Shown piece after piece: positions 23,600 to 63,803 of a stretch of 64,000 nucleotides of DNA. This stretch comes from a virus (taxonomy: Duplodnaviria; Heunggongvirae; Uroviricota; Caudoviricetes). Location: the IMG/VR virus record IMGVR_UViG_3300025162_000035; one strand, given 5' to 3'. Under the pieces are notes generated by a model. It worked only from the letters and a program-made list of their open reading frames with translations. It did no database searches and was not told where the DNA came from. The translations under genes were made by a program, and so were the position numbers. Positions within the stretch are counted from its first letter, which is position 1, and each line of letters opens with the position of its first letter.

Positions 23600-23634
23600 T
23601 TTTTTATTACAATATTTTTTTATATCTTTGCACG

Positions 23635-24299: not shown

Positions 24300-24319
24300 T
24301 TTTAAAAAAATGGTACAGT

Positions 24320-24517: not shown

Positions 24518-24522
24518 AATTT

Positions 24523-24597: not shown

Positions 24598-24615
24598 CAA
24601 AAAAATATAACATAC

Positions 24616-24686
24616 TGATCCATAGCATAATGCAGTGTGTCACCCTTTGAAGGTGTTCGGTATAGGTTCGAGTCCTATTGGATCAA
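24616..24686 (+). tRNA. tRNA with a reduced D-arm, anticodon tentatively TTG (Gln)
   Basis: Acceptor TGATCCA/TGGATCA, anticodon stem CACC/GGTG with loop CTTTGAA, T-arm ATAGGTTCGAGTCCTAT; D-stem only 3 bp and no GG in the D-loop. Confidence 0.4.
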
Positions 24687-24691
24687 CACAA

Positions 24692-24763
24692 TGCTCCATC
24701 GACCAACGGCTAAGTCGTGAGTCTCTGAAACTCAAGATGATGGTTCAAATCCATCTGGGGCAA
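24692..24763 (+). tRNA. tRNA, anticodon tentatively CTG (Gln)
   Basis: Acceptor TGCTCCA/TGGGGCA (one G-U pair), D-loop CAACGGCTAA, anticodon stem TGAGT/ACTCA with loop CTCTGAA, T-arm GATGGTTCAAATCCATC. Confidence 0.5.
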
Positions 24764-24830
24764 CAATGTCCATATTGGTATTTTTTTGACTTTTTTATTT
24801 TAATATATAGAATAAAAAAGAATTATACCT

Positions 24831-28480: not shown

Positions 28481-28481
28481 T

Positions 28482-45434: not shown

Positions 45435-45986
45435 ATGAAAAAATATATTAAATCTTTTGATAATCTTTATGAAGATATCAATATTGGAATTGATAATGAT
45501 AAAGATACTATCAATTTTTTAAATAAATTGCTATCAAATCATTTCATTTTGTTTCTCAAATTGTGGAATTTTCATTGGAATGTTTTTGGCTCTGGATTTA
45601 TGGCTAATCATAAATTTCTTAATGAATTATATGATAAATTCTTTGAAGATATTGATAGCATCTCAGAAAGAATAAGAGCCTTAGGTGGAAGACCAATAGG
45701 TACATTGAAAGGATATTTGGATAAGACAGATTTAAAAGAATATGACGATGATAAAGATATTCCAAAAGTTGAAAAAATGTATGAAATTATATTGGAAGAC
45801 TATGAATCAATTATAAAAGATATACGAAAATTCTTAGGTGATAAAGTTGATAATGGCACCAGCAATTTCCTTGAAGATATGATCATGAAGAAAGAAAAAG
45901 ATGCTTGGATGGTAAGATCGAATATTGAAAAAAATAAAGAAAAATCAGATTCAGATTCTGAATCATCGGATAACTCCGATAATTAA
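45435..45986 (+). CDS. dps: Dps / ferritin-like protein with an acidic Ser/Asp-rich C-terminal tail
   Basis: LWNFHWNVFGSGFMANHKFLNELYDKFFEDIDSISERIRALGGRP matches the Dps ferroxidase-region pattern; tail SDSDSESSDNSDN. Confidence 0.75.
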   Translation: MKKYIKSFDNLYEDINIGIDNDKDTINFLNKLLSNHFILFLKLWNFHWNVFGSGFMANHKFLNELYDKFFEDIDSISERIRALGGRPIGTLKGYLDKTDLKEYDDDKDIPKVEKMYEIILEDYESIIKDIRKFLGDKVDNGTSNFLEDMIMKKEKDAWMVRSNIEKNKEKSDSDSESSDNSDN

Positions 45987-48401: not shown

Positions 48402-49448
48402 ATGAAAACAGATGAAGATAGCGAATGGCTCATTTCAGTTCGCAACTCGATAAAAACCCTTGAAGAGTTAGCGAGCCAATTAGACTTAACTGAAGAAGAA
48501 AAAATTGAAATAACAAAGAAGTTACCCTTAAGGATAACCCCATATTACCTTGAGTTAATTAAAACACACCCAGTTCTTAGAAGAACCGTGGTTCCAACAA
48601 TAAACGAATTCATTGTTTCAGATGATGAATCAAATGATCCATTGGATGAGGTTGGTCATAATCCAACGCCATGCATTGTGCATAAATACCCAGACAGGGC
48701 ATTATTTTTAGTTACAAATTTTTGTGCTGCTAACTGCCGATATTGCACACGGTCCCGTATTTTTGATGGTCAAAATCGCAATGCAAGCCGAGAGGATATT
48801 GAAGCAGCATTTCAATATTTGACCGAGCATACCGAAATCAGGGATGTTATTATTTCTGGTGGTGATCCATTAACCATGTCAGATGGTAATTTGGAGTATA
48901 TTTTACATAAGCTTCGTGCTATTAAGCACATTGAAATTATTCGTATTGGTACAAAGGTGCCAGTAGTTCTACCAGAACGTATTACTCATAAACTGGTTAA
49001 CATGCTTAAGAAGTACCATCCGCTGTATATAAGCATACATTTTATTCATCCCGATGAAATCACTAATGAATGTAAGAAAGCTTGTGAGCGATTAGCTAAT
49101 GCTGGAATCGTATTGAGAAGTCAAACGGTACTTTTAAAAGGTATCAATGATGACGTTGAAACGATGAAGACTTTGATGCATAAGCTTCTTACTATTCGTG
49201 TTAATCCATATTATATTTATTCAACAGATAAAATTTCTGGCTCAGCCCATTTTAGATGTACTCTTGATAAAGGATTAGAGATAATAAATGGTTTAAGAGG
49301 GTTTACATCAGGTTATGCGGTCCCGACATTCATTGTCGATACAAAGCATGGAAAGATTGCGTTGCATCCTGATAATGTATTATATCGTGATGAAAATGTA
49401 ATAAGATTGAAAAGCTATACAGGTGACGTTGTAGATTACCCATTATAA
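48402..49448 (+). CDS. radical-SAM lysine 2,3-aminomutase family protein (KamA/EpmB-like)
   Basis: CAANCRYCTRS (CxxxCxxC cluster) with KamA/EpmB-like flanks; 348 aa fits the EpmB (YjeK) size; SD AAGGAGG upstream. Confidence 0.8.
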   Translation: MKTDEDSEWLISVRNSIKTLEELASQLDLTEEEKIEITKKLPLRITPYYLELIKTHPVLRRTVVPTINEFIVSDDESNDPLDEVGHNPTPCIVHKYPDRALFLVTNFCAANCRYCTRSRIFDGQNRNASREDIEAAFQYLTEHTEIRDVIISGGDPLTMSDGNLEYILHKLRAIKHIEIIRIGTKVPVVLPERITHKLVNMLKKYHPLYISIHFIHPDEITNECKKACERLANAGIVLRSQTVLLKGINDDVETMKTLMHKLLTIRVNPYYIYSTDKISGSAHFRCTLDKGLEIINGLRGFTSGYAVPTFIVDTKHGKIALHPDNVLYRDENVIRLKSYTGDVVDYPL

Positions 49449-49572
49449 AATATATCAAAAAGTGACTATAAACCAATGAATTTCTTTCATAGCGTAAACA
49501 AGCCACACATAAAATTTTATGTACCATGGGGTTCGTTTACGTATTGCTTCTAATCTGGGGTTTTTTAACATA

Positions 49573-50277
49573 TTAATATGGTTGGTGGTTACTGAATCCT
49601 TCGCAATTATTGCAAATGAGCTGGGCTAAATCAACCCCATGATGCTCACACGTAGCGCAAGATACTTGGTCTTCCGTTGGTAGTGCAGAAAGCTTATGTG
49701 CCCTGATAAACACCAAAAGTGCTTTCTCCAAGTTATCTTTTGTGACTTTATCCATGTGCGGTCTTTCTTTGCAAAATTTCTGCATGGTGCTGAAAACCTT
49801 AAGAACAAAATGTGATGGTGGTTCTTTTGGACGGACCTGATTGATTGTTTTATTGTTTAGCAGCATTTTCATGAACCTTGACTGATCAATTGACGGCAAT
49901 ACGATCTTTGTCTTTTCGTCAATTTTTGTAATAAGCGCAAGTGTTTCTTCATTGCATTCCAGAAGTTCAAACTCGATCTTATTAGCATCACTCAGCTTAG
50001 CCCAAAAACGGCTACCAGCAAGCGGGTGTTTTTTATTCACATCCTTTGGGATAGTAAAAGTTACAGAACTGTAATTACTTACACCTTTTCTGATGTAGAT
50101 GCGATCAACCCCAAGGGTTGTACCTTCTGGAATGGTTACAACTTCATTGCATCTGTACGACATGGTTTTACCGAGTAGTTGAAAAAGTTTTGCATTTCTG
50201 CTTTCCCCACACAATACAAATGTCCAGTCTGCTGTGAGTTTAAGTTTGGTTCCGATTTCTGGAATAAATAGATTCAT
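49573..50277 (-). CDS. hypothetical protein (234 aa), GC-richer
   Basis: ORF track; C-terminal CxxC...CNNCEG. Confidence 0.45.
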   Translation of the reverse strand: MNLFIPEIGTKLKLTADWTFVLCGESRNAKLFQLLGKTMSYRCNEVVTIPEGTTLGVDRIYIRKGVSNYSSVTFTIPKDVNKKHPLAGSRFWAKLSDANKIEFELLECNEETLALITKIDEKTKIVLPSIDQSRFMKMLLNNKTINQVRPKEPPSHFVLKVFSTMQKFCKERPHMDKVTKDNLEKALLVFIRAHKLSALPTEDQVSCATCEHHGVDLAQLICNNCEGFSNHQPY

Positions 50278-50440
50278 AAATTTTCGTTTTGAATGTTAAT
50301 TGCGATTTGATGCAGAACGTTTGGTAATAAAACCTTTCCAACTGCACCATGCTTTAATCTTTCAGATGTTTTCTGAATGAAGATTTGTCCATTTTCTAAT
50401 AATTCGACTGAGTACCACATAGTTTTAAAAATTAAACAGA

Positions 50441-50460
50441 AAAACCCCACCGAAGTGGGG
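50441..50460 (-). terminator. intrinsic terminator for the minus-strand gene 50483..51115
   Basis: Minus-strand CCCCACTTCGGTGGGGTTTT; an A-run on the other side gives it bidirectional potential. Confidence 0.6.
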
Positions 50461-50482
50461 TTTGACTGGATTGGTTAATACT

Positions 50483-51115
50483 TTATTTTATTGCGATGGT
50501 CGGGTCGATTTCCCTGAGGAACTTTTCAACATCACCCTTGCCAGTTGTCATGGCTTCGTCAATGGCACCTTTCTTGATGCTGACTGTCGTGTTAGGTTTG
50601 ATGAGATTAACTTTTTCTTCAGGGGTCAAAAACTTTGCGCTCATGATAAGCTTTCCAAGTGCTTCAGCGTGATCTCCAAGGATTTTAGGATCGAATGAGA
50701 AAGTTGTTTCTTCCACAACAACATCCTCCCCATAGATTTCCTGAAGTTCCTGAGCCCTTTCAGGGGAAAGGATTTTGTAAGCATCCTTAGGCTGGATCAT
50801 GACAGCCAGTACATCATTCGGGTCTTTTGCTTCGGTGAGAAGGTCAAAACTGTCAGGGTTACGTTTGTTTTCGGCATACAGGCGGATGAATTCGGTTGTT
50901 CCCAAATCCTTGATGATTCCCTGAGCAGTTTCGAGGTCTGCCTTTGCGTTAGCAAGGTCAGTCTTGGCTTTCTTGAATTTCGCAACGGTGTCTGCGAATT
51001 CTGCGCCCTTGATCGTGACCTGAGGTCTTGACGATTTCTTGGCAGCGGTCTTTGTGTTCGGGGTTGCCTTCTGTGCGAAAGGATTAAAAGCTGGGGTTGA
51101 AGTTGATTTTGCCAT
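50483..51115 (-). CDS. hypothetical Ala/Lys-rich protein (210 aa), GC-richer, with its own promoter motif and terminator
   Basis: Stand-alone unit; composition differs from the flanks. Confidence 0.5.
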   Translation of the reverse strand: MAKSTSTPAFNPFAQKATPNTKTAAKKSSRPQVTIKGAEFADTVAKFKKAKTDLANAKADLETAQGIIKDLGTTEFIRLYAENKRNPDSFDLLTEAKDPNDVLAVMIQPKDAYKILSPERAQELQEIYGEDVVVEETTFSFDPKILGDHAEALGKLIMSAKFLTPEEKVNLIKPNTTVSIKKGAIDEAMTTGKGDVEKFLREIDPTIAIK

Positions 51116-51162
51116 AGTTTTAAGTTTTTGAGGTTAAAATTTTCTGTGAATTAATTACTCGA

Positions 51163-51197
51163 CAAATGTACGAACTATTTCTGAATAAAAAAAATTT
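51163..51197 (-). promoter_or_regulatory. promoter-like element (T-tract plus TCGTACATTTGTCG)
   Basis: 46 nt upstream of ATG 51115. Confidence 0.4.
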
Positions 51198-51218
51198 CAG
51201 AGAAAGTTTTTTGAAAAT

Positions 51219-51590
51219 TTATGTTAAATCTTCGATAAGTTTCTTTGTGGCAAGGTATTCGGGGTTTGTGATTGATGTAATATATTCTTGTACATTCAGA
51301 CAACATAATTGAATGACGGTGCCAATGCCTGACATAAATGCCACAATACCAAGAATAATACCCAATGTTTCTTCATTACTGTGACCATAAGAGTCATGCG
51401 GCAATGCCATAACTTTAAAGCAAAGAATGATAGTAATCGCACCAAGGAGCATGGCAAAGGCAAACTTCATCCAGAAATAGATTCCGATCAGCTTAACCTG
51501 TTTCAGATACTGTCCGTAGACTTTTTCGGCTGTGGTTCCCATTTTCTCAGCCAATTTTTCGATGAGGGGAAGAAAATCTTTTGTTTCCAT
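51219..51590 (-). CDS. membrane protein (123 aa, 3 TM)
   Basis: Hydrophobic segments. Confidence 0.45.
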   Translation of the reverse strand: METKDFLPLIEKLAEKMGTTAEKVYGQYLKQVKLIGIYFWMKFAFAMLLGAITIILCFKVMALPHDSYGHSNEETLGIILGIVAFMSGIGTVIQLCCLNVQEYITSITNPEYLATKKLIEDLT

Positions 51591-51628
51591 ATGTTATAAA
51601 TTTAAGTTAAACGACATTGTTTAACGAT

Positions 51629-51663
51629 GCAAATGTACAACCTTATTTCGAGAAAAAAAAATT
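51629..51663 (-). promoter_or_regulatory. promoter-like element (AAATTTTTTTTTCTCGAAATAAGGTTGTACATTTGC)
   Basis: 38 nt upstream of ATG 51590. Confidence 0.45.
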
Positions 51664-51674
51664 TAAACGAAAAT

Positions 51675-52370
51675 TTAATATCTCATGCCAGATTTTGATA
51701 CTCCGTTTTTTGCAATGTTATCTTGACCCTTTTGATAATTTCTTAAATAATTACTATGTTCAGCCTTTTCTCTTGATTCAACAAAATTTCTTTGGGTAGC
51801 TTCATATTCAGCTTCATCTTTACATCTTTGTTGTTCCCATTTTTGTTCCCATTCTGATGAATGTCTATGAGTTTCCTTTGGCTGGGCCAAATCGATCATA
51901 TATTGATGTTTTTCCTCAAATGAATATCCCCATAGTGCACTACGTGATGCTATAGCTGCCAAGTCTCTGATCAATGAGATTAATCTGACCCTTTTATCAT
52001 TTTGAAAAAGGTTTTCAAGAGCGTTAGACATGTCGGACAAAGTATATATTGTCCATGCAACAAGTGATACTGGCTTAATTTTATTATATGCGTTGATAGC
52101 ATAGAAATCTTTCAAATCCAGATTTTGATAATTCCAATATAATCGATGACTAAAATCTTCATGAGAGTATTCAGAACGATAGTTGTGATTTATTTTCCAC
52201 CATTCTAATGCCGATCCCTTTAGCATGTTTTTAATATGTGTAAAATGTGAATGGTCAGGAAAATGTTCATTTAAACATTGAAATACCAACCAAACATACA
52301 TATCTTCTAACTGAGAATTGGTTGGCTCTTTTGATAATAAAAATTCGAATTTTTCTAATGAGTTGTCCAT
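51675..52370 (-). CDS. hypothetical protein (231 aa)
   Basis: ORF track. Confidence 0.45.
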   Translation of the reverse strand: MDNSLEKFEFLLSKEPTNSQLEDMYVWLVFQCLNEHFPDHSHFTHIKNMLKGSALEWWKINHNYRSEYSHEDFSHRLYWNYQNLDLKDFYAINAYNKIKPVSLVAWTIYTLSDMSNALENLFQNDKRVRLISLIRDLAAIASRSALWGYSFEEKHQYMIDLAQPKETHRHSSEWEQKWEQQRCKDEAEYEATQRNFVESREKAEHSNYLRNYQKGQDNIAKNGVSKSGMRY

Positions 52371-52385
52371 TGGTTTAGTTTTGAG

Positions 52386-52420
52386 GCAAATCTACAACCT
52401 TTTTTCGAATAAAAAAAATT
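52386..52420 (-). promoter_or_regulatory. promoter-like element (T-tract plus TTGTAGATTTGCC)
   Basis: 15 nt upstream of ATG 52370. Confidence 0.45.
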
Positions 52421-52882
52421 TCACTTAATCTTTTTTTGTTTTGATCCCCAACTTCCACTTTTTACAACTACTTTTACTATTTGGGTAATAGGATCAGCGT
52501 TAGCTAACGATTCCAATTTCGACCGTCTCAATTCTTTCAAAGCACCTTTACCTTCAAGCCATGTAATATCTTTTGTAAGTCTTAGGCTTACAAATTTATC
52601 TTTGGCAAGAGATTCTGCTTGTGATCTATAGTTTGATAAATGATAATTAGCTTCACATCTAATAAGCTCTATTTTTGAATAACCAGTAGCATACTCATCG
52701 AGTTCTCTTACATGGACATAAACATCAATACTTGTACCCCACGCTGATGCATGCTGAGTATAAAATCCTATTCTTTTTGTAGATACCGATAAATAATCAT
52801 TTATCATTTTACGATATCTTAGATTAGAAACTCCAAGTACGATGGACGTTGCTAAAAATAATAATGTTGTAAGTAGTATCAT
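52421..52882 (-). CDS. N-terminally membrane-anchored protein (153 aa)
   Basis: TM helix MILLTTLLFLATSIVLGV. Confidence 0.45.
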   Translation of the reverse strand: MILLTTLLFLATSIVLGVSNLRYRKMINDYLSVSTKRIGFYTQHASAWGTSIDVYVHVRELDEYATGYSKIELIRCEANYHLSNYRSQAESLAKDKFVSLRLTKDITWLEGKGALKELRRSKLESLANADPITQIVKVVVKSGSWGSKQKKIK

Positions 52883-53202
52883 ATCAATAAAACGTTTGGT
52901 TGGTGATCGAATTCATATCTTTTATATGCGTATTCAAAATTTTCATAGTTGTACCACAATCTTCTTTTACCTTTAACATTTACGGTACCATTAAATAAAT
53001 ATTCCATATGGAAAGCAAGAACTGAGTCATCGGCAGCTAATTTAATAAGTTGTTCTTGTCGATATAAGGTAATTGTGAAACTGATATCTTCAGCGTTTGC
53101 CCCCGTAATTCTTCGTCCATCAGCCGCCATTGGCCCCGTTACCTTATCAAGATCGGTATAATTTACCAAAAACCAATCTTTAAATTCGTCAAACGTTTTC
53201 AT
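52879..53202 (-). CDS. hypothetical protein (107 aa)
   Basis: ORF track; 4-nt overlap. Confidence 0.4.
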   Translation of the reverse strand: MKTFDEFKDWFLVNYTDLDKVTGPMAADGRRITGANAEDISFTITLYRQEQLIKLAADDSVLAFHMEYLFNGTVNVKGKRRLWYNYENFEYAYKRYEFDHQPNVLLI

Positions 53203-53740
53203 GTATGCTTAGTAGTTTCCTTTTTCTTAATTCAGTAATTGTGGATTCTTGGTGATCTATTGGGTTTATTGCAACACCTGTACTTGTAGAAACATCACCA
53301 AAATCAACCGTTAATGAAATTGGAAGATTATTTTTTCTTTTTAATTTCACTTCAAACCCACCTGTACTCCAACCACCATCATTTATGGCAGCCCCATCAT
53401 CATTGATTGCATGAATTAAAAGATCAAGTATTGTTGATTGTATTTCTTTCACACCATCATTTTGCCAACCCCAGCTCCAACCACTATTTTTCATATGTGA
53501 TTGAATTTTACCGTAGTCCAATTTATTGAAGATGTCATTTATCAAATATACAAGAGTTTTATTCTTGTTGAATATTTTCCAATACTCAAGTTCATACAAT
53601 GGCTGATAGCATTCTTTCCAATATGGGGTCCAATCATTATTGCCAGTCCTCCGCTCATATTCATCGTGGCTCATTGTTGGATTGATATTGTCAAATCTTC
53701 TACTCATCATTGCCAGTTTTTGATGTATTTTAATCATCAT
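53189..53740 (-). CDS. hypothetical protein (183 aa) with C-terminus ...TELRKRKLLSIHENV*
   Basis: C-terminal ELRKRKL motif; 14-nt overlap with the downstream gene. Confidence 0.45.
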   Translation of the reverse strand: MMIKIHQKLAMMSRRFDNINPTMSHDEYERRTGNNDWTPYWKECYQPLYELEYWKIFNKNKTLVYLINDIFNKLDYGKIQSHMKNSGWSWGWQNDGVKEIQSTILDLLIHAINDDGAAINDGGWSTGGFEVKLKRKNNLPISLTVDFGDVSTSTGVAINPIDHQESTITELRKRKLLSIHENV

Positions 53741-54002
53741 TCAATTTTTGAATCTTGTACTTTCTCTTTGGTATTTCCAATAATTCTTTGAGAACTGGAT
53801 CGGTGGATTTTATGTGAGTATATAATTTACCGTCCCCAACCTCATCGAATTTACAAAATTCATAATCATGAAATATTTCAAGATGATTGTGAAGTGGATT
53901 CCATATTACTTTATTGAAAATGATTTCATGTTTTTTAGGATTGATATCATATATACGATAAAAATATCCACCCTTTCTTAAAATGTCACCAATTTCAAGC
54001 AT
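53730..54002 (-). CDS. hypothetical protein (90 aa)
   Basis: ORF track. Confidence 0.4.
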   Translation of the reverse strand: MLEIGDILRKGGYFYRIYDINPKKHEIIFNKVIWNPLHNHLEIFHDYEFCKFDEVGDGKLYTHIKSTDPVLKELLEIPKRKYKIQKLNDD

Positions 54003-54032
54003 AATACATATAGTATGTTTTTATGCTAAAGT

Positions 54033-54365
54033 TTAGCGAAGAATAGCTACAAGAATATTGCTGACGATTTTTACAATCCCCCAGAAACCAAAGGCGACAC
54101 CAAGCACAAATCCGAAATCATACATTCCAGCACCGCTTTTGTCATAAATGACAATGGTATTGGAAAACAATTCACCAATGGCACTGAAATAGAATGTCAT
54201 TCCATTCCACAATCCCCACCAAAATCCTGGTGTGGTAGCAACATCGGTGCATTTCTGAATGTCAACATGATGAGCGCATCCGCTGAAGACTAATACAATA
54301 GCCAACAAACTAATAACATAAGCATACTTTTTCATAGGTTTTGTTTTTAAAAGTTTAGGATACAA
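54033..54365 (-). CDS. putative lipoprotein / membrane protein (110 aa)
   Basis: Signal plus lipobox LVFSGC; C-terminal hydrophobic segment. Confidence 0.45.
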   Translation of the reverse strand: MYPKLLKTKPMKKYAYVISLLAIVLVFSGCAHHVDIQKCTDVATTPGFWWGLWNGMTFYFSAIGELFSNTIVIYDKSGAGMYDFGFVLGVAFGFWGIVKIVSNILVAILR

Positions 54366-54417
54366 AGATATAAATAATTTTAAAATAAAAAAATTATTTA
54401 ATTAGCTTTCATCTAAA

Positions 54418-54963
54418 ACACTAAAATCTCAATGGAACAATCCAGAATCAAGAAAGACATTATCTATAGCAAACAGTATAAAAAACAAAGGTCGAAAGCA
54501 TAGTGATGAGAGCAGAAAAAATATGAGCGAAGCACATAAAGGCTTTAAGCCGTCACAAGAATCTATAAATAAAAGACTTTTGAAAGTAACTGGTAGAAAG
54601 CAATCTCAGGAATGGATAAATAAAAGAGTTTTGAAAACAACTGGTCAGAAAAAGTCAGATGAAATGAAGCATAGATTATCAGAATCTGCAAAAAATAGAA
54701 AGATTTCTAAAGAAACTAAATTAGAAATGTCGAAAAAAATGTCTGAGTCAAAAAAGTTACCAAGAAAACAATATAAATTAATTTCACCAAATAATGTCGA
54801 ATACATATTCGATGGATTAAAGAAAGTATTCGAGTTTGCAAAAGAAAATAGTTTATCTAAAAATTTATTAAAAGATTTTTTCAACAAAGGAAAAGTAATT
54901 TCAAAATCAAAATACTCAAAAAATAGTGAAAATTGGGAATTTATCTTATTGAAAAAATTATAA
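54418..54963 (+). pseudogene. remnant of a homing endonuclease: NUMOD3-type DNA-binding repeats without a catalytic domain
   Basis: Three repeats G-(R/Q)-K-(H/Q/K)-S-x-E-x-(R/I/K)-K-(N/R)-(M/V)-S (GRKHSDESRKNMS, GRKQSQEWINKRV, GQKKSDEMKHRLS). The frame is open from 54418 but the first ATG is at 54523. Confidence 0.45.
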
Positions 54964-55467
54964 ATTATTGTGATAAGTTTCTATTTTTTTGAATGACCAC
55001 TTTGGGTCTGGCTTATATTTATTTTTTTTAAAATATTCATAAATTGGTTTCCAATCGGTTTCTGGATTAAATGACGCTTTATCATCGATTAAAACGTTGT
55101 AATATGGCTTCTTATCGTAACATCCAAAACTTCCGTTAGCGTCTGAAATTTCTGGATTTTCATTTATATATTTGAAATGGATACCATCTTTTTCTAATAT
55201 ATCCAAATATATTTTAATTTCATCAGGATATGAAGAAGTAAAAAGAATCATAATAATATCTGGTCTGTTCTTTGATATGAATTGCAAAGTTTCTTTACAA
55301 TATTTATAATAAACAATTTCTTTAACAGATTTACGATAATCTGGTATTGATATCACACCATGGAGATCCAGGAACCAGTATGTTTCAAACCAATGATGTT
55401 CTTTTGCATGTTTGAACATTTTTTTTATCCATTTTAATATTGACGGCTGATAAAAAGGATTTAGCAT
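54958..55467 (-). CDS. hypothetical protein (169 aa), possibly HAD-like
   Basis: FLDLHGVIS loosely resembles HAD motif I; weak. Confidence 0.3.
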   Translation of the reverse strand: MLNPFYQPSILKWIKKMFKHAKEHHWFETYWFLDLHGVISIPDYRKSVKEIVYYKYCKETLQFISKNRPDIIMILFTSSYPDEIKIYLDILEKDGIHFKYINENPEISDANGSFGCYDKKPYYNVLIDDKASFNPETDWKPIYEYFKKNKYKPDPKWSFKKIETYHNNL

Positions 55468-55628
55468 ATTTATGAGTATTTAAATGACATTGTTAATAAT
55501 AATAGCCACCAAGGTGAAAATGCTATTGCAAAGCAGACAACCAATGCAAGCAAGACAATTTCAATCTCATTAATTGAGCTCCTTTGTAATAATAAAAGGA
55601 ATAACCACCAAGGGGATACCAAAATTGA

Positions 55629-55955
55629 TCATGTGCTTAAATATTGAATGATATGCTGTTTGTATATTTGATAAAAAAGATCATTTGAAATTAATATTGG
55701 GTTATAATATTCATCTTTTTTTGATGTTTTCTCAAAGATACGACTAATTCCAGAATGGCGAAAAAAGATTCTGTTGGAAATTTTAAATTGTTTACCATTT
55801 TTTTTGAATATAACATTCTCAAGTTTCTTACTCCATAAAAGCTCACCATGGAACCCATACACGTTGGTTTCTTCCTGATCCAAACTAAAGGTGATCCCCA
55901 GAGCCAGCAATTCAGCAATTACGTTTTGAACAGATTTATCTTCGAGTGCTGTCAT
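55629..55955 (-). CDS. hypothetical protein (108 aa)
   Basis: ORF track. Confidence 0.35.
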   Translation of the reverse strand: MTALEDKSVQNVIAELLALGITFSLDQEETNVYGFHGELLWSKKLENVIFKKNGKQFKISNRIFFRHSGISRIFEKTSKKDEYYNPILISNDLFYQIYKQHIIQYLST

Positions 55956-56623
55956 TTTTTCATAAAGTTATATACGCATCTGTCGGTACCAATTGCAATT
56001 TCAATAACTTTGTACCCTTCAAGGTCTTTCCGTTTACTCATTGAACAAATTTCCATGGAATTCTTGGCACATATAATATCCATCGTTTCTTCCGAATAGT
56101 CTGGAAGACGATCACTTTGACCAAGTTCACATCGTCCGATCATATTATTCATCATAGCCAAAACATCGGAATATAGTTTGATTGAATAATCGTTCATGGT
56201 AGTGGTGGCAAAAATGATCTGGTATTCCAATTGATAGAATTCCTTCAATCGCATGAAATGGGTTGGCTGGTCCTGTTCCTTACGGAATGACTTCCCATGT
56301 TGCCAAACAACGATAGGTGGGCGATATTTTATATTGTTGTGTCCTGATAGCATTTCTTTGGCATATAAATAAGACCCCATAGTGGTTTCTGGTCTTAATG
56401 CAACATCTTCAAATGCCCAGATATCATCTTCAGTATAGTTTGGGTTGATAAATTCTCGTGGGGTTAGTATGGGGGCTTCAACCTGAATAAATTGAAATGC
56501 AGCGTTCTGTTGCTTTAATGATTGAATCAATTTGAATGTGAAGTGTTCTTCCAGCATTTTTCGAATGCGGATTTCTTCTTCAGTCCAAAATATTAAACCA
56601 TTTTTATTATATAGGCTTTCCAT
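55952..56623 (-). CDS. mini histidyl-tRNA-synthetase-like class II catalytic core (223 aa; no insertion or anticodon-binding domain)
   Basis: FEDVALRPETTMGSY (cf. HisRS FEDRNGDSLTLRPEGTAG), motif 2 SFRKEQDQPTHFMRLKEFYQLE (cf. FRHERPQKGRYRQFHQLG), motif-3-like IEIAIGTDRCV (cf. GFAMGLERLV). Confidence 0.55.
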   Translation of the reverse strand: MESLYNKNGLIFWTEEEIRIRKMLEEHFTFKLIQSLKQQNAAFQFIQVEAPILTPREFINPNYTEDDIWAFEDVALRPETTMGSYLYAKEMLSGHNNIKYRPPIVVWQHGKSFRKEQDQPTHFMRLKEFYQLEYQIIFATTTMNDYSIKLYSDVLAMMNNMIGRCELGQSDRLPDYSEETMDIICAKNSMEICSMSKRKDLEGYKVIEIAIGTDRCVYNFMKK

Positions 56624-56870
56624 TGCTAATTTTTTTAAGTTTTAATTTTCTTAATTCTTTGGTAGTTATAAAGTATTCGTCAAACATTGGTTTACCATAT
56701 AGCCAAGGTTTACCTATATTAAATGTTACAAGATATCCACCAGCACCAGATATTAAAACTATGGATAATTCACATTTACTATAAACTTGATATTTAACCC
56801 CAGCTTGAAATAATATTATTTTTTCTGGTGGATATGTATGCTTACAATAAACTTGCTCCACATTTTCCAT
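56607..56870 (-). CDS. small protein of the Lys-rich-C-terminus family (MENVEQVYCKHTYP...FITTKELRKLKLKKISNGKPI*)
   Basis: Tandem paralog; the NG codons contain the ATG of the HisRS-like gene. Confidence 0.5.
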   Translation of the reverse strand: MENVEQVYCKHTYPPEKIILFQAGVKYQVYSKCELSIVLISGAGGYLVTFNIGKPWLYGKPMFDEYFITTKELRKLKLKKISNGKPI

Positions 56871-57123
56871 TTTTCAATTTATCAAGTTTTAATTTTCTTA
56901 ATTCTTTGGTAGTTATAAAGTATTCGTCAAACATTGGGTGCTCATATAGCCAGCGTTTACCTATGTTAAATCTAACACCCCTACCACCATCTCCAATTAT
57001 TCCAACATATTTTTCATTTCTTTCAACCAATTTATATTTAGTACCTTCACTAAATATAACTTTTTCTTCTGGATACCAATGTGGAACTTGCGGATATGTA
57101 GATTTACAGTAGACTTCTTCCAT
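56842..57123 (-). CDS. small protein of the Lys-rich-C-terminus family (MEEVYCKSTYP...FITTKELRKLKLDKLKNGKCGASLL*)
   Basis: Tandem paralog; 29-nt overlap with the next copy. Confidence 0.5.
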   Translation of the reverse strand: MEEVYCKSTYPQVPHWYPEEKVIFSEGTKYKLVERNEKYVGIIGDGGRGVRFNIGKRWLYEHPMFDEYFITTKELRKLKLDKLKNGKCGASLL

Positions 57124-57394
57124 TTTTCAATTTATCAAGTTTTAACTTTCTTAATTCTGATTTGCTTGCAAAATAATGCTCAAAAATAGGCAAATTAGTT
57201 GGTCGTGGATTTCCAATTCGTATATAAAATCTTATAAGATGCTGACTTATATTTTTATTCTTACTAATTATTACTATGGCTGTCTTATTTTCATGAAAAA
57301 CATGGTAGCTTTTTCCAGAGATAAAAAGTATTTCAACATCTTCTTTACAATCTGCTGGTTCCCAATACGTTTCTTTACAATATACTTCAGCCAT
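57104..57394 (-). CDS. small protein of the Lys-rich-C-terminus family (MAEVYCKETYW...SKSELRKLKLDKLKNGRSLL*)
   Basis: Tandem paralog; 20-nt overlap with the next copy. Confidence 0.5.
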   Translation of the reverse strand: MAEVYCKETYWEPADCKEDVEILFISGKSYHVFHENKTAIVIISKNKNISQHLIRFYIRIGNPRPTNLPIFEHYFASKSELRKLKLDKLKNGRSLL

Positions 57395-59624
57395 TACCCA
57401 GTTTCCAATTCATAAAATCATTTTTATGCAACCATTTCATAAATTCAAAAGCATATAAGCATTTTTTGCCTTCACACTCACGATTTCTATTTTTATCACC
57501 ATAGGTACCATATGCTGGATCGCTGGATTTCATTTTTGCAAACTCTGCTATTACCCATTTATGAATATCTGGGTGGTTTTTGGCTCCACTACCACCTTTA
57601 AATGAAAAAGTGTTGAAATGCCTTTCATCAATTTCATATTGTAGAATTGGTACCCATGAATCCATGGTAAGTTGGCAAACCGAAAAAGACTTACATCCAT
57701 TACTAAAGTATTCTTTACCATTCGTGTTGTCAGGATGTTCTGATCCAAGCGTATCGGATTTATGAGTAAGCAACATTAATCCAGTACCATCAAGAATAAG
57801 TGCTTGCTCATGTTGACCTATCATAAACCCATTCTTTATGAATTCTTTTTCGCTTTCTCTTTTATCTTCTTCATATTTAATATATTCTTCATCCAGATGC
57901 AATTGAAATACAATCTCAGTATTATCAGGAGTTTTTTCATAGAAAAATGAAATATATTTTATTCCTTCAATAGATGTAAGATTATAACCGTGTGTTTTAA
58001 ATCTGCTGTAAATAGGACTATTTATCAAATAATCAACACTGTTTCCAAACCCCATTGGAAGGTCTGGCTGTGGAGTTACAAATTTTATGCTCACTGTTAT
58101 TTTATCACTTGCATATTCATTTTTCCTTTTATCAGAAAAATCAAATGTGCAAGACACATCAGTAGATTTTTTGAAAATCGTAAATTCTTTTTTGACCGCT
58201 CTGAATAATTTATCCTTATCAATTTCTTCTGGGATGAAGTCTTTATATCGACCATCCTTCGTAACAATTGCTAAGAATTTTTTTGCGAATTTAACATTAC
58301 TACCTTTGCTATATTCGCTTGCCATTTCTTCTTCTTCGTGAGCCAATATATCTTTACAGATTTCAATTCCAGCATCAATATAAGATTGATGTACGCTTTT
58401 TATACGTTCCCGCTTAAGGCTATCCTTATTGATCATTATGTCAATTATGGAGTAATCACAAATAGGATAATACGGATGATAATCTGGGTCTATTTTAGTG
58501 AATTTTGATCCGCTTGGCTTTTTATTTTTTTCTTCATTAAATTTTAATTGAATGAAGGCATCCATAACATCATGCAGTTCATCAGTAGTAAGATCATCGA
58601 TGGACTTTTCACCAAATCTGGAATCTTTCGGAAGCGTATCACCATAGATGCGTTTCATTGCATCTTTGATCATATCAAATTGCTTATTTTCTTTTGATTT
58701 TTCTTTTTGAATAATTTTATTCATTTCTGAACCGTATTCATCCACCGTCAATTTAACTTCTGGAATAGAAAGTATTTTATCAACAACGATCTGAATTTCT
58801 GGACTAAATTTGGCATTCTGCCAATCACCATATAAAGATTTATCTTGGTCTGCACCAAGTTCTTCAATGACGTACCCAGCTTTATTCAACCCGTATCCAG
58901 TTCCGATGGTGCAAAGTAAATGATCTAAAACACGTTTACGAGTTTTATAAAGAGAATAGTATCGATGTTGCGGATTTGTTAAAATTTCAACCCACTCGTC
59001 AAATGTTTTATTGATCTTTAACTGCTTCTTTTCAAGTTCAGTTATTTCGTGCAGCCTACCTTCAAGTATCAATTTTTTAAATGATTCAAAGTTGATAGAT
59101 TGGTGATCAAAAGATTCCCGAACATGTAAGCTCCAAGCATCGTAAATTAAATTTTCAATCCTTTCATTTTTAGGATTGATCATTTCAATTTTATATTTTG
59201 GATTTTCTTCGCAGTCATAGGATGTTTCGCTTTTGGATAAACGTCCTTTATGTCCCCAACAAATCCTACCAGCACTAAATAGTGTTTCGTATATGTAGCC
59301 CAATTTGGCTAATTGTGGAAGATTTGCACGTTTTGATAAATAAACCTGATGCTCACTAATTGCATTTAAAAGTGGATCAATGACATTTTTTTCAAATTTG
59401 AAAGTATTATCATCTACTTTACATTTTCTTATTTCATCCTCAGTAATCTTGAAATCTGCAATGGTTTTACCATTATCACTGATAACTTTTAAAATATCAT
59501 CAGTAGTACATTCAAACTCAGATTTTATGTCGGTAAGAGTATCAAATCCGTTATAATGTTTTCCTTTACTGGATTGTACTAAAGCATCAAAAATTGTTTC
59601 CATGTCCATTGTTTTTTCGATCAT
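57387..59624 (-). CDS. large hypothetical protein (745 aa) ending ...NWKLGNG*
   Basis: Intact long ORF; its terminal NG codons (AATGGC) carry the ATG of the next gene; no motif recognised. Confidence 0.55.
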   Translation of the reverse strand: MIEKTMDMETIFDALVQSSKGKHYNGFDTLTDIKSEFECTTDDILKVISDNGKTIADFKITEDEIRKCKVDDNTFKFEKNVIDPLLNAISEHQVYLSKRANLPQLAKLGYIYETLFSAGRICWGHKGRLSKSETSYDCEENPKYKIEMINPKNERIENLIYDAWSLHVRESFDHQSINFESFKKLILEGRLHEITELEKKQLKINKTFDEWVEILTNPQHRYYSLYKTRKRVLDHLLCTIGTGYGLNKAGYVIEELGADQDKSLYGDWQNAKFSPEIQIVVDKILSIPEVKLTVDEYGSEMNKIIQKEKSKENKQFDMIKDAMKRIYGDTLPKDSRFGEKSIDDLTTDELHDVMDAFIQLKFNEEKNKKPSGSKFTKIDPDYHPYYPICDYSIIDIMINKDSLKRERIKSVHQSYIDAGIEICKDILAHEEEEMASEYSKGSNVKFAKKFLAIVTKDGRYKDFIPEEIDKDKLFRAVKKEFTIFKKSTDVSCTFDFSDKRKNEYASDKITVSIKFVTPQPDLPMGFGNSVDYLINSPIYSRFKTHGYNLTSIEGIKYISFFYEKTPDNTEIVFQLHLDEEYIKYEEDKRESEKEFIKNGFMIGQHEQALILDGTGLMLLTHKSDTLGSEHPDNTNGKEYFSNGCKSFSVCQLTMDSWVPILQYEIDERHFNTFSFKGGSGAKNHPDIHKWVIAEFAKMKSSDPAYGTYGDKNRNRECEGKKCLYAFEFMKWLHKNDFMNWKLGNG

Positions 59625-60484
59625 AATTGATCTTTACATTTTTGCAAGTTTGCGGTTTGGGCGGCAGTCAATGCTGGATATTCCAAATTAAGTTTTTTCA
59701 TTCGGTCCAGCAGAATTTCAGATACAATCAATCTGGACGCTTTCTTTTGGTTTGATGGAACAACATACCAAGGGCATTCTTTAGTTGAAGTTTCATTAAT
59801 CAAATCTTCATAGCATTCCATATATTTTTCCCAGAACGTGCGTTCTTTCAGATCAGATTCCGAAAATTTCCAATTCTTGGATTTATCTTCGATCCGTTCA
59901 AGCAATCTCTTTTTTTGCTCATCTTTGGTGATGTTCAAAAAAAGTTTTATGACAATGGTGCCATTTTTGTGAAGCATCCGTTCAAAATCCTTGATTTGCT
60001 TGAACCGTTCTTCAAAAATGTCTTTATGGATAAGTTCTGTTGGTATTTTTTGAAAAACAATTAAATCATGAACTCGAACAACCAGCACTTCTTCGTAATA
60101 TGAACGGTTAAAAATCCCAATGTGACCTCTTTCTGGCATTGATTTATGGGCTTTCCACAAATAATCATGACCTAATTCTTCCGCACTGGGTTGCTTAAAG
60201 CTTGAAACTTGAGTTGATTGCGGATTGAATCCAGCCATAACATGCTTTATGATTCCGTCCTTCCCCGCAGTGTCCATGGCTTGAATTACAATCAATATGG
60301 AATACTTTCCGTCTGCATATAATTTACCTTGCAGATCAACAAGTTCTTCAATATTTCCAGACAGTTCATCAATATCTTCCAACGTTGAATCGGCTCTCAT
60401 TTTTTTAAGGCTGATTTTATTACTACCATCAACCTCGAATTTGTCTATATTCATATTTTTTTTGTTTTTAGTGACATTGAGCAT
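59621..60484 (-). CDS. ppk2: polyphosphate kinase 2 (PPK2) family protein
   Basis: Walker A AMDTAGKDG, FNRSYYEEVLVVRVH and PWYVVPSNQK match the PPK2 signature. Confidence 0.85.
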   Translation of the reverse strand: MLNVTKNKKNMNIDKFEVDGSNKISLKKMRADSTLEDIDELSGNIEELVDLQGKLYADGKYSILIVIQAMDTAGKDGIIKHVMAGFNPQSTQVSSFKQPSAEELGHDYLWKAHKSMPERGHIGIFNRSYYEEVLVVRVHDLIVFQKIPTELIHKDIFEERFKQIKDFERMLHKNGTIVIKLFLNITKDEQKKRLLERIEDKSKNWKFSESDLKERTFWEKYMECYEDLINETSTKECPWYVVPSNQKKASRLIVSEILLDRMKKLNLEYPALTAAQTANLQKCKDQL

Positions 60485-60696
60485 TTAAATACTGGTGTTT
60501 CGATTATTTTTGCAACCCAATATCCACCTTCTGGGTTATTTTTTTGTAATCTGTTTGCACATGCGATTGTGCTTTTGAGTGATTTATAATTATAATAATC
60601 ATCATCGGAAGGCAAAACGGTGAAATAATCGTATTCACCATCCCCTTTCATTCTCACCTCATAATAAGTTGTTTTTTTCATATCAGTCAGTATCAA
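60451..60696 (-). CDS. small hypothetical protein (81 aa)
   Basis: ORF track. Confidence 0.3.
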   Translation of the reverse strand: MILTDMKKTTYYEVRMKGDGEYDYFTVLPSDDDYYNYKSLKSTIACANRLQKNNPEGGYWVAKIIETPVFKCSMSLKTKKI

Positions 60697-61126
60697 GTTC
60701 TGAAATTTTCAACATTCTATCTAAAAGCAGACCACTTTTAAATCTGAATTCTTTTTTAAATGGTACAGCTTTGTTTTCTTTGGTGTAAGAAAAATATTGG
60801 GCATCTTTACAAGTAACATTAAACCTCATACCCTGAGCAAATTTATCAGTAGTACCCCTTACATTATAATTTACTTCTGGAGCAGAAAAAACACACTCAC
60901 GATACAATGTGCATGAATCCGTTTTGTGCTTCCACTGCCAAGCCAGAAAGATTTGATCATCAGGCGAAAAAGAATTGAGCTTACCAATAAATTCGTTAAA
61001 GGCAGCAATATCAATAATAATAAGCACAAACCCATTTTCGGATTGGTTGATCATTTTATAGTTTTCCTTCTCTGACCTGAACAATTTGATAAATCTCTTC
61101 TTCATAGGATATATTTTAGGTAGCAA
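60683..61126 (-). CDS. hypothetical protein (147 aa)
   Basis: ORF track. Confidence 0.4.
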   Translation of the reverse strand: MLPKIYPMKKRFIKLFRSEKENYKMINQSENGFVLIIIDIAAFNEFIGKLNSFSPDDQIFLAWQWKHKTDSCTLYRECVFSAPEVNYNVRGTTDKFAQGMRFNVTCKDAQYFSYTKENKAVPFKKEFRFKSGLLLDRMLKISELDTD

Positions 61127-61466: not shown

Positions 61467-62678
61467 ATGACGCTAAAAAATGAAACTCTATTACAGCTCA
61501 TACCACGTGACTTTCAATATTTAACACAGCAGAAGAAGCTTCAGTATCAAACGAACACCCAGCAAGGTGTAATACACCTTAAAACAGAATATTTGATTGA
61601 TATTATCAGTCATTTCATGAAAAAATATTTTTATAATTGCAAACAGGAATTAAATTTCGGTATGCACTCATTATTACTTAAACAAAAATATGGTGAGCAT
61701 TATAATTTTTACATGGACTGGCTTCAATCAAAAAAATTCCTATTCATGGTTTCAAATTATTATAGTGGGGTAAAAACAAAAACATATCAAATAAATAATA
61801 TTTTTTTATCCGATGTCATCAGATATAAAAGTTATGATAAGATTTTAATAAAGAAGACTAAAAAATATTTGCTTGATTCGATTTCTGATGGACCGAGCCC
61901 GATATTAATCGATGTTAGAAAAAAACTCGTTGATAATCTGAAATACATAAATATTGATCATGATGGGGCTTCTGCTTTTTTAGATACATATTTTGATAGA
62001 CGAAAAGGCTCTAAAGATATTGAAAAGTACAAAAAGAATAAGCAAACCATAGATGATATAAAGGCTGGAGATATGTATTTTGTTTTTGATACGTATGGTA
62101 GATTTCATACTAATTATACAGTTTTGAAAAGAGAACTACGAAAGAATTTCTTAACAATAAATAATGAACGTTTGGGAGAAATCGATATTAAAAATTCACA
62201 GCCTTATTTTCTTGCATTGTATATGAAGCAACTTGATCCTACTATTAATGGATCAAGCCAAAATTATTTTGATTTGGTTAAAAATGGATTAATATATGAA
62301 GATATCATGGAGAGAAGTATTGTTAAGGATCGTGATGATGCCAAAGATTTGATGATTAAAGTTCTGTTCGATAATCAGGATCGTGGTGATCATAAATGGG
62401 AAAATGCAATATTTAAAGAACTATACCCATCAATTCATGCGCACATTAGAGAAATGAAAGCTATAAACCATAAGGAATGCGCTCATAAATTACAACGGTT
62501 GGAAAGTGATTTTCTTATGAACATTGTTATAAAGGAAATAATTACAACCTACCCAGAACTAATCTTCTTCACAGTTCATGATTCAATAATGTACCCGATA
62601 TCTTATGATACAAAGGTTAAAGATATTTTCTACAAGCACAAAAAAGAAATGGATAAGGTATTAGATAGAAAATTATAA
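61467..62678 (+). CDS. hypothetical protein (403 aa) with polymerase palm-like motifs
   Basis: YINIDHDGASAF (motif A-like Asp), IKNSQPYFLALYMK (motif B-like Lys/Tyr) and IFFTVHDSIMYP (motif C-like HDS, cf. T7 RNAP IHDSFG). Suggestive only. Confidence 0.4.
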   Translation: MTLKNETLLQLIPRDFQYLTQQKKLQYQTNTQQGVIHLKTEYLIDIISHFMKKYFYNCKQELNFGMHSLLLKQKYGEHYNFYMDWLQSKKFLFMVSNYYSGVKTKTYQINNIFLSDVIRYKSYDKILIKKTKKYLLDSISDGPSPILIDVRKKLVDNLKYINIDHDGASAFLDTYFDRRKGSKDIEKYKKNKQTIDDIKAGDMYFVFDTYGRFHTNYTVLKRELRKNFLTINNERLGEIDIKNSQPYFLALYMKQLDPTINGSSQNYFDLVKNGLIYEDIMERSIVKDRDDAKDLMIKVLFDNQDRGDHKWENAIFKELYPSIHAHIREMKAINHKECAHKLQRLESDFLMNIVIKEIITTYPELIFFTVHDSIMYPISYDTKVKDIFYKHKKEMDKVLDRKL

Positions 62679-63803
62679 TTTTATCACGGCTGGTTCTTCC
62701 CCTATTTGACGATATCTAAAATTACTATTTTCAACGAATTTCTTCATTTTCTTCAATGACGTTGCAGCAATAATAAACCCATGATTCCTTAAATTTATAG
62801 CGAATACACCATCTTTTTCGGAGTTCTTGTCGGCTAACACTGAGGATATTTCACTGATTTCCCTCATATCACCGCATGGATAATAATATTGTGTCAATGG
62901 TACCATATTTATATAGGCATGCCCATGAATAATATAATTTATCTTCTTGAAATTCGAATATATGAATAACTGGATAGGAGTATCCACACTTGGTTTTTTT
63001 GATTCATCAACTTCATAGAAGAAATAATTGGATGTAATATCATTGTTTATTGCTCTTGCTGCAATGAAATCATCAGGGGAAATTGATGCCTTAGGAATAT
63101 TCCTTGATGACACCATTATACATTGGCTTTTTTCTGCTGGTCTAAATGATGGAAATAGTTTTGAACATCTGGTTGATGCGTTTCCAAAATATCTTCCCCC
63201 ACGCTGGGCTTCAACTTTAGCTGCCACAGTTTTAATAATGTTACAGAAATCTGGAAGGTCTTTTGGTGTTGTCATTTTTAAATCCTTAATGCACATCCCA
63301 GTAACTCTTTTTGATGCTACCCTTATAGATTCAGTTGACCAGTTGTAAAGCTTCAATATGGAAATTGAAAGTTCTTTGATATCTGTAGTTTTACACCAAA
63401 GGTTTCCGAGGGCATCTACAAAATGAAACATGAATTTTCCTGTTTCATCTGAATCAATGGCGATAACAGCATTTGCACTCATCTTGAATATTCTTGCAAC
63501 AGCATCACCAATGGTTCTATCATCCCTCAGAACTTTGGAGCATATTAATACAGCACCAGTTTTCTTTTTAGGATAAAATTTTTCAACGTCATTGCTGACA
63601 TTTGGTGCCCAGATAATCAGATCATATTGAGTATAATCTTCAGACGTTAATTGCTTTATTGGGCCGCCATTGATGCACCAAATATTACAGTTTTTGTAGA
63701 ATGGTATAATTGCTTCAGCAAGAAGATCAGTCAATTTTTTAATAACTGATGATGCTTTTGGGGTATCACCAAATGTCCCACCGACAATCATTATATTTTT
63801 CAT
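62673..63803 (-). CDS. two-domain protein: N-terminal Rossmann-like domain of unknown function fused to a C-terminal class II aldolase/adducin-like domain
   Basis: C-terminal IIHGHAYINM...PCGDMRE...LRNHGFIIAATSLKKM resembles the class II (metal-dependent) aldolase signature. Confidence 0.5.
   Translation of the reverse strand: MKNIMIVGGTFGDTPKASSVIKKLTDLLAEAIIPFYKNCNIWCINGGPIKQLTSEDYTQYDLIIWAPNVSNDVEKFYPKKKTGAVLICSKVLRDDRTIGDAVARIFKMSANAVIAIDSDETGKFMFHFVDALGNLWCKTTDIKELSISILKLYNWSTESIRVASKRVTGMCIKDLKMTTPKDLPDFCNIIKTVAAKVEAQRGGRYFGNASTRCSKLFPSFRPAEKSQCIMVSSRNIPKASISPDDFIAARAINNDITSNYFFYEVDESKKPSVDTPIQLFIYSNFKKINYIIHGHAYINMVPLTQYYYPCGDMREISEISSVLADKNSEKDGVFAINLRNHGFIIAATSLKKMKKFVENSNFRYRQIGEEPAVIKL

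Follow-up and report, generated by a model that had tools for sequence, protein, structure and literature searches.

What would a tailed phage do with a protein that consists of little more than the catalytic core of a class II aminoacyl-tRNA synthetase (aaRS)? The question is raised by a gene at 55952..56623, on the minus strand of a 64,000-nucleotide stretch of a Caudoviricetes genome (IMG/VR record IMGVR_UViG_3300025162_000035; the whole stretch is referred to as the window). The gene encodes 223 amino acid residues, and its product is here called the mini-synthetase. A preliminary description of the window had taken the protein for a reduced histidyl-tRNA synthetase (HisRS) with motifs 1-3, had placed it in a functional unit with overlapping neighbours, among them a PPK2 gene, and had connected it to beta-lysine chemistry via a KamA/EpmB-type aminomutase encoded nearby. 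The list of open reading frames (ORFs) of the window reproduced every gene of that description at its coordinates, and four near-identical metagenome contigs, in which genes were called separately, show the same genes with the same overlaps. As judged from its sequence, the gene codes for a class II aaRS catalytic core that has motifs 1-3 and is devoid of an anticodon-binding domain, and the protein resembles glycyl-tRNA synthetase (GlyRS, class IIa), not HisRS.

The features that define the class II superfamily, an antiparallel fold, motifs 1-3 and the arginines of motifs 2 and 3, were all found in the mini-synthetase. A Pfam scan gave a match to tRNA-synt_2b that stayed below the threshold. 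Among the NCBIfam models the GlyRS model PRK04173 gave the best match (E 1.5e-10), followed by hisS (E 1.2e-7), and PRK04173 also came ahead of hisS for four diverse relatives, with E values for GlyRS between 1e-9 and 1e-17. The hisS model TIGR00442 reached 31.1 bits, far from its cut-off of 286.75, and was always behind GlyRS. The histidine-binding motifs of HisRS (GGRY, GG.YD and R...YY) were sought in the 223 residues and none was present, which sets the protein apart from HisRS together with a binding pocket of the GlyRS type. When the PDB was searched with phmmer and with a family profile, GlyRS entries were returned, then pyrrolysyl-tRNA synthetase (PylRS), and no others. Residues 76-135 of the query were aligned by phmmer to residues 242-298 of human GlyRS, and the profile alignment did not stop at motif 2 but took in a segment that is specific to GlyRS ('SDRLPDYSEET.DI' versus 'KDKLSHYSDRTVDI'). 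Motif 3 reads 'VIEIAIGTDR' and was aligned to 'VLELSFGVDR' of N. equitans GlyRS, in keeping with the GlyRS-type pattern 'VIExAxGxDR'. The HisRS identity was rejected because GlyRS ranks above it, the HisRS motifs are absent, and pocket as well as motif 3 are of the GlyRS type; what stands of the earlier assignment is the stand-alone class II core. The argument that such a core could recognise its tRNA through G-1:C73 fell with the HisRS label.

The absence of anticodon-binding and insertion domains, on the other hand, was borne out. No match to the HGTP anticodon-binding domain (PF03129) was obtained for the 223-residue protein, and its C-terminus lies only 8 residues past the motif 3 arginine, R215. 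An AlphaFold2 model (predicted local distance difference test score 83, predicted template modelling score 0.80) is compact and contains a complete antiparallel sheet. The best Foldseek match of the model was GlyRS from M. tuberculosis, and PylRS was among the top matches. The fold alone cannot tell GlyRS from HisRS, but the sequence can.

The residues that line the active site point in the same direction. In alpha2 GlyRS the amino group of glycine is bound by Glu245, Glu296 and Glu522, and residue 524 is Ser or Ala (Valencia-Sanchez et al., PMC4938167). According to HMMER alignments these four human positions correspond to E79, E133, E208 and A210 of the mini-synthetase, i.e. the GlyRS pocket is found in full. 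E79, the first pocket glutamate, is part of 'RPETT' (residues 77-81, 56381..56395), which is aligned to 'LRPETAQG' of GlyRS. Motif 2, GKSFRKEQDQPTHFMRLKEFYQLEYQ, comprises residues 110-135 (56219..56296) and, by alignment to GlyRS motif 2, contains R114, E116 and F129 for ATP binding as well as E133, the second pocket glutamate. Motif 3, VIEIAIGTDRCVYNF, covers residues 206-220 (55964..56008) with E208 as the third pocket glutamate, A210, and the arginine R215. The motif 1 region was read from the alignment as residues 43-55, FQFIQVEAPILTP (56459..56497); this motif forms the dimer interface in class II enzymes, and its proline is present.

Conservation of these residues was counted over 86 diverse relatives with identities down to 23%. 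E208, R198 and D200 are present in all 86, E79 and E133 in 85, and R114, E116, F129, E191 and R215 in 84. Position 210 is occupied by alanine in 67 relatives, by serine in 15 and by glycine in two. The motif 1 prolines vary more, with P51 in 73/86 and P55 in 64/86 sequences. Among 28 close relatives 58 positions are invariant, and the motif 2 loop is strongly conserved there. Catalytic residues that are kept in 84-86 of 86 sequences form the pattern of an active enzyme. Loss of those residues had been named beforehand as an outcome that would speak against an enzyme; by alignment they are retained in at least 84 of the 86 relatives.

The mini-synthetase has much in common with the alpha2 GlyRS enzymes (GlyRS-A/GlyRS-E; 5z5e, 8t5n, 1ati and 2pme), namely the class II fold, motifs 1-3, 'LRPET', the three-glutamate pocket, the Ser/Ala position, the motif 3 pattern 'V(I/L)E.(S/A).G.DR' and the segment 'YS..T.DI' after motif 2. 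It differs from them in that it is about half the size of their catalytic region, is roughly 20% identical, and lacks the HGTP domain and the insertions; neither their full-length architecture nor scores at the level of a GlyRS equivalog were found.

The protein is not an isolated case. A search of 5.8 billion clusters gave 1055 homologs, and the best 120 of these are 66-95% identical to the query, nearly all of them exactly 223 residues long, on contigs of up to 633 kb. An exhaustive search of representatives at 50% identity yielded 298 clusters, nearly all with lengths of 210-260 residues. The few longer members that were examined have either a short tail or, following motif 1 at the insertion-1 position, an insert, and no anticodon-binding domain was found in them. 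Cultured phages with a mini-synthetase include Sinorhizobium phage Phosso, Xanthomonas phage XbC2, Caulobacter Bertelyviruses and Brevundimonas jumbo phages, where the annotation varies between serine-tRNA synthetase, class II RNA synthetase, aminoacyl-tRNA synthetase and hypothetical protein. Chromosomal homologs of about 249 residues occur in Rhizobium, Phenylobacterium, Devosia, Caulobacter, Shinella and Labrys, and tblastn alignments to the bacterial homologs span residues 1-220 with 40-46% identity (E 1e-50 to 1e-69), which amounts to homology over the full length. RefSeq labels the bacterial proteins 'aminoacyl--tRNA ligase-related protein' and JGI 'glycyl-tRNA synthetase'. The gene is carried by the bacterial loci L012-L091, for example at 6001-6723 of the Rhizobium ruizarguesonis chromosome locus L053. 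A literature search for a described GlyRS-like mini paralog, or for a functional study of the family, found none. Taken together, the sequence comparisons identify the mini-synthetase as a member of a large family, without a described function, in huge and jumbo phages and some Alphaproteobacteria.

If the gene acted together with its neighbours, these would be expected to travel with it, and the genomic surroundings were therefore compared. In five distant phage relatives (L005-L009), whose mini-synthetases are 66-74% identical to that of the window, the surroundings are entirely unlike those of the window. An all-against-all BLAST of the flanking genes of eight phage contexts revealed nothing shared, and among 14 bacterial loci no conserved neighbour was found, the mini-synthetase gene alone being common to them. 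In a Rhizobium locus, for instance, it is flanked by an Mla-type transporter and a D-Ala-D-Ala carboxypeptidase on one side and by a large repeat protein on the other. The neighbourhood seen in the window is kept in the near-identical contigs only. PPK2 and a mini-synthetase occur together in a single phage record, LR745206.1, the PPK2 of which is 30% identical.

In several unrelated phages the gene does lie in islands of translation or RNA-repair genes. On the 633-kb phage contig L005 a truncated threonyl-tRNA synthetase (ThrRS, 403 residues) is encoded two genes upstream, with eight tRNA genes, Tpt1 and tyrosyl-tRNA synthetase (TyrRS) nearby, and a 108-residue stand-alone tRNA_bind (Trbp111-like) protein is encoded directly downstream (L005 10675-11001, E 1e-14). 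Genes for cysteinyl-tRNA synthetase (CysRS), a tRNA, an RNA ligase and a peptidyl-tRNA hydrolase are found near the mini-synthetase in Phosso (L001). The Phosso tRNA, one gene upstream (L001 6594-6669), has the anticodon CTA of an amber suppressor, a C1:G72 pair, a G73 discriminator and an encoded CCA end, and is annotated in the record just as 'tRNA-Undet'. In XbC2 a tRNA-Ser gene precedes the mini-synthetase by 20 nucleotides, in L009 an RNA ligase lies directly upstream, and in L006 methionyl-tRNA synthetase (MetRS) is encoded nearby. The adjacent tRNA as a dedicated substrate was considered and rejected as a coincidence: the tRNA of Phosso is not tRNA-Gly-like, that of XbC2 is a tRNA-Ser, and none is near the gene in the window.

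Our preferred reading, to which we assign a little short of an even chance, is that the mini-synthetase would be a functional stand-alone minimal catalytic domain of alpha2 class IIa GlyRS, which would form glycyl-adenylate and may charge tRNA without reading the anticodon. ATP would be held between R114, E116 and F129 of motif 2 and R215 of motif 3, and glycine would be placed in the GlyRS-type pit formed by E79, E133 and E208, with the small A210 at the Ser/Ala position. Formation of glycyl-adenylate, which is well supported by residue conservation, would follow, and glycyl-adenylate is most likely the product. The likeliest acceptor would be the 3' end of a tRNA, so that the protein may act as a supplementary, anticodon-blind GlyRS in the translation toolkit of the phage; because there is no anticodon-binding domain, the tRNA could be selected only via its acceptor end. 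This last step draws on genomic context and on precedents, and is put forward more weakly than the others. Charging of tRNA without anticodon reading is the acceptor step that we prefer, at a probability that we set appreciably under one half, and a non-tRNA acceptor is given a somewhat lower probability still. Since no neighbour is conserved in phages or bacteria, the acceptor should be something ubiquitous.

As to precedents, an 81-residue fragment of GlyRS was reported to activate glycine and to charge tRNA-Gly (bioRxiv 10.1101/2024.01.11.575260). Minimal natural aaRSs and engineered cores, such as PylRS without its N-terminal domain (275 residues) and the urzyme GlyCA, which is reported to activate glycine and to charge tRNA-Gly, are evidence that tRNA can still be charged by a class II core with few additions. 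PylRS differs from the mini-synthetase, however, in having tRNA-binding elements of its own and a dedicated tRNA, and GlyCA is a laboratory excerpt from an unrelated bacterial GlyRS alpha subunit.

A number of observations weigh against a tRNA-charging GlyRS. The profile scores are far below equivalog level (PRK04173 40.5 bits with a cut-off of 312, TIGR00389 30.6 bits with a cut-off of 243), the protein is acidic (isoelectric point, pI, 5.5), and neither the anticodon-binding domain nor the insertion domains, which assist canonical alpha2 GlyRS in holding tRNA, are present. The surroundings in L007 and L008 contain no tRNA or aaRS neighbours, and proximity in the other phages is guilt by association. 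Of the known stand-alone paralogs of class II cores, most have no tRNA-charging activity (HisZ, AsnA, EpmA and the amino acid:carrier-protein ligases). Furthermore, the Alphaproteobacteria that host the bacterial homologs can be expected to have a full GlyRS of the GlyQS type, which would hint at a non-redundant, possibly non-translational role.

Alternatively, the enzyme would be a tRNA-independent ligase of glycine or another small amino acid, with an adenylate that is passed to a nucleic-acid base, a small molecule, a protein or the thiol of a carrier protein. EpmA, AsnA, the seryl-tRNA synthetase (SerRS)-like amino acid:carrier-protein ligases and the class I protein GluQRS all pass an adenylate to a non-tRNA acceptor. 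The missing tRNA-binding domains, the acidic character of the protein and its occurrence in Alphaproteobacteria, which are expected to have a complete GlyRS, would fit such an activity, but no carrier protein or other conserved neighbour accompanies the gene in the 14 bacterial and eight phage contexts, the loop of motif 2, a contact site for the acceptor end of tRNA in class II enzymes, is highly conserved in close relatives, and in several phages the gene is located among tRNA and aaRS genes. The amino acid:[carrier protein] ligases represented by Bll0957 are derived from the methanogen type of SerRS and encoded beside carrier-protein genes, whereas here neither sequence similarity to them nor a carrier-protein neighbour is detectable; Bll0957 (3mey) was not among the phmmer matches even at E values up to 10, a serS match was not obtained, and the structural likeness is at the level of the superfamily. 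We regard a ligase of this kind as a minority possibility, albeit one of some weight. Synthesis of dinucleoside polyphosphates such as Ap4A, or of another nucleotide signal, is very unlikely. It would draw on a known side activity of GlyRS and on an intact ATP site, and in the window it could be aided by the PPK2 in the same overlapping chain, which would regenerate nucleoside di- and triphosphates from polyphosphate; however, PPK2 is absent from the other contexts examined, the one phage record that has both encodes a distant PPK2, and a glycine-independent reaction has no need for a strict three-glutamate glycine pocket.

Even less probability is given to a non-catalytic role, either as a subunit or regulator in the manner of HisZ or the accessory subunit of DNA polymerase gamma, or as a mixed-dimer poison of the host GlyRS. 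The dimer-interface motif 1 is kept, and a homolog from a Caulobacter phage weakly matches hisZ (E 1.5e-5, 24 bits with a cut-off of 272). The window protein itself has no hisZ match, however, and no HisG-like gene was found among the Pfam-scanned window proteins. HisZ has lost its catalytic residues whereas the mini-synthetase family keeps them: at least 84 of the 86 have the catalytic arginines, the phenylalanine that stacks on adenine and the three glutamates, which is unexpected for a pure scaffold. Mixed dimers are unlikely in any case, given that Caulobacter, Sinorhizobium and Xanthomonas, the cultured hosts, use an unrelated alpha2-beta2 GlyRS. The original model, a mini-HisRS or an EpmA-like beta-lysine ligase in one pathway with KamA, PPK2 and the 745-residue protein encoded next to PPK2, now seems barely tenable and is largely refuted by comparative genomics. 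The KamA homolog is indeed EpmB-sized and its lysine-binding residues are kept, but, apart from the lack of HisRS motifs and the GlyRS-type pocket and motif 3, an EpmA/GenX match is missing, no phage record shares KamA with the mini-synthetase and only one shares PPK2, KamA is encoded on the opposite strand 6.5 kb away, and the neighbourhood is found in near-identical contigs only. Finally, a protein far shorter than canonical GlyRS or HisRS might be a decayed fragment of a full-length synthetase. Such a pseudogene has a negligible probability and was rejected on the number of homologs (1055 of similar length, in 298 clusters), their nearly constant length and their conservation, including the 58 invariant positions; the model is compact and confident, and no other aaRS fragments, of HisRS or otherwise, flank the gene.

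If the preferred GlyRS reading is true and the protein charges tRNA, 223 residues would show how little protein specific aminoacylation needs, which bears on the early evolution of synthetases. An anticodon-blind GlyRS would be a natural counterpart of the urzymes made by engineering, and could serve as a compact scaffold in orthogonal translation and genetic-code engineering. To our knowledge, a GlyRS of about 220 residues would be the smallest natural aaRS. It is less likely than not that huge phages, and some Alphaproteobacteria, use such an enzyme to keep tRNA-Gly charged, or to charge tRNAs with altered anticodons, independently of the host enzyme. If glycine is transferred elsewhere, a new family of tRNA-independent ligases common to huge phages and rhizobia would emerge. 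A tested function would serve more than 1000 database entries that are now labelled glycyl- or serine-tRNA synthetase, hypothetical protein or ligase-related protein, and the mini-synthetase family should be listed separately whenever the 'tRNA synthetases' of huge phages are counted.

The overlapping genes around the mini-synthetase had been described as a chain of six. The overlaps are real, but the chain comprises nine genes, running on the minus strand from 61126 to 55629 with overlaps of 4-34 nucleotides each. It begins with two ORFs of 81 and 147 residues (60451..61126), followed by PPK2 (287 residues, 59621..60484), a 745-residue protein with a helical N-terminal part and an alpha/beta C-terminal part (57387..59624), and three small basic paralogs of 96 (57104..57394), 93 (56842..57123) and 87 residues (56607..56870). 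The last of these (pI 9.4) overlaps the start of the mini-synthetase gene by 17 nucleotides with its 3' tail. A gene for 108 residues (55629..55955) overlaps the mini-synthetase stop codon by 4 nucleotides and ends the chain. Terminator-like sites were sought on the minus strand within the nine-gene chain and none was seen; promoter-like matches at the chain barely exceeded the number expected from shuffled sequence and are uninformative. On these grounds it is plausible that PPK2, the 745-residue protein, the small paralogs and the 108-residue gene are co-transcribed with the mini-synthetase, without being conserved partners of it.

A 37-nucleotide element is found at three junctions of the chain by DNA alignment, at 57118-57154, 56865-56901 and 56618..56654 on the minus strand. 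Every copy is A-rich, encodes the basic C-terminal tail 'LRKLKL.K..NG' of a small paralog and includes the ATG with which the following gene starts; at the last copy, TTAAGAAAnTTAAAACTTnAnAAAnTnAnnAATGGAA, that gene is the mini-synthetase. The element has the look of a translational-coupling unit that was triplicated, and it partly explains the 'K-motif' that had been noted in the small proteins.

PPK2 was confirmed as such, with 229.5 bits for PF03976 (E 5e-68, cut-off 22.3) and 357.3 bits for TIGR03709 (cut-off 247.2). The small paralogs gave no match in Pfam or PHROG and no relatives in IMG/VR, and were for that reason rejected as carrier proteins or as a widespread domain. The 108-residue gene has just two homologs among the 5.8 billion clusters and is a lineage-restricted ORFan; it is unrelated to the tRNA_bind protein at the equivalent position in L005, and a role as a tRNA-binding partner was dismissed. 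For the 745-residue family 71 homologs were found. Their contexts are variable, and none of the four inspected repeats the arrangement in the window. One homolog is fused to the head domain of a CCA-adding enzyme, with a 2H phosphoesterase and then an RNA ligase downstream, which makes a tRNA 3'-end theme for the chain plausible, by association only. A conserved operon of the mini-synthetase with PPK2, the 745-residue protein and the small proteins was rejected, as it is absent from the five mini-synthetase and four 745-residue contexts and no flanking genes are shared. The functional unit proposed earlier was likewise given up, the 66-74% identical relatives being found in different neighbourhoods. 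The chain is a lineage-specific arrangement in which PPK2, the 745-residue protein, the small paralogs and the 108-residue gene are neighbours by position only.

The KamA-family radical-SAM aminomutase (348 residues, 48402..49448) is a single plus-strand gene among minus-strand genes, 6.5 kb from the mini-synthetase. It scored 331 bits with TIGR00238 (cut-off 199) and matched lysine 2,3-aminomutase (LAM) 2A5H with an E value of 3e-100. Residues C108/C112/C115, R117, D276, D313 and K318 align with C125/C129/C132, R134, D293, D330 and K337 of LAM, where they serve as Fe-S cysteines (C), as the lysine that binds pyridoxal phosphate (K), and as the arginine and two aspartates that bind lysine. The CxxxCxxC motif, the pyridoxal phosphate lysine and the lysine-binding residues of a KamA-family lysine 2,3-aminomutase are thus all in place. 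The family assignment of the preliminary description was correct, but the EpmB equivalog model TIGR03821 stayed below its cut-off (262.5 bits, cut-off 369.3). The proposed partner EpmA (PoxA/GenX) resembles the mini-synthetase in being a truncated class II paralog, with a non-tRNA acceptor, and a KamA/EpmB-like enzyme is present in the window. EpmA is, however, a class IIb protein derived from lysyl-tRNA synthetase, whereas the mini-synthetase is class IIa and GlyRS-like; it has neither a class IIb LysRS-like core nor a match to the genX model. No EpmA was found in the window, where the sole class IIb gene encodes a full aspartyl-tRNA synthetase (AspRS). Phage records with both a KamA homolog and a mini-synthetase were sought and none was found, and the link between the two was rejected since their phage distributions do not overlap; with it went the connection to beta-lysine and EpmA. 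KamA-like homologs were seen in uncultured phages of 735 kb and 462 kb, in Pseudomonas putida phages of 200 kb and also in phages of Vibrio.

The closest relatives of the window genes are in phage genomes of 0.46-0.74 Mb, which makes a huge phage the most likely source of the window. Further translation genes of the window are a short MetRS of 460 residues (7165-8547), the AspRS, which is of the non-discriminating type and 421 residues long (19078-20343), and one tRNA-Met and three tRNA-Gln genes (22546-24764). PADLOC defence models gave no meaningful match, on which ground a defence or anti-defence role was rejected. A 146-residue ORF at 54523-54963 on the plus strand contains repeated 'SQE.INKR'-type motifs like the DNA-binding NUMOD3 repeats of homing endonucleases and may be a remnant. 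The window also encodes a ferritin-like protein (45435-45986, plus strand), a protein with a GmrSD N-terminal domain (27602-28624, minus strand) and one that contains a class II aldolase-like domain (62673-63803, minus strand).

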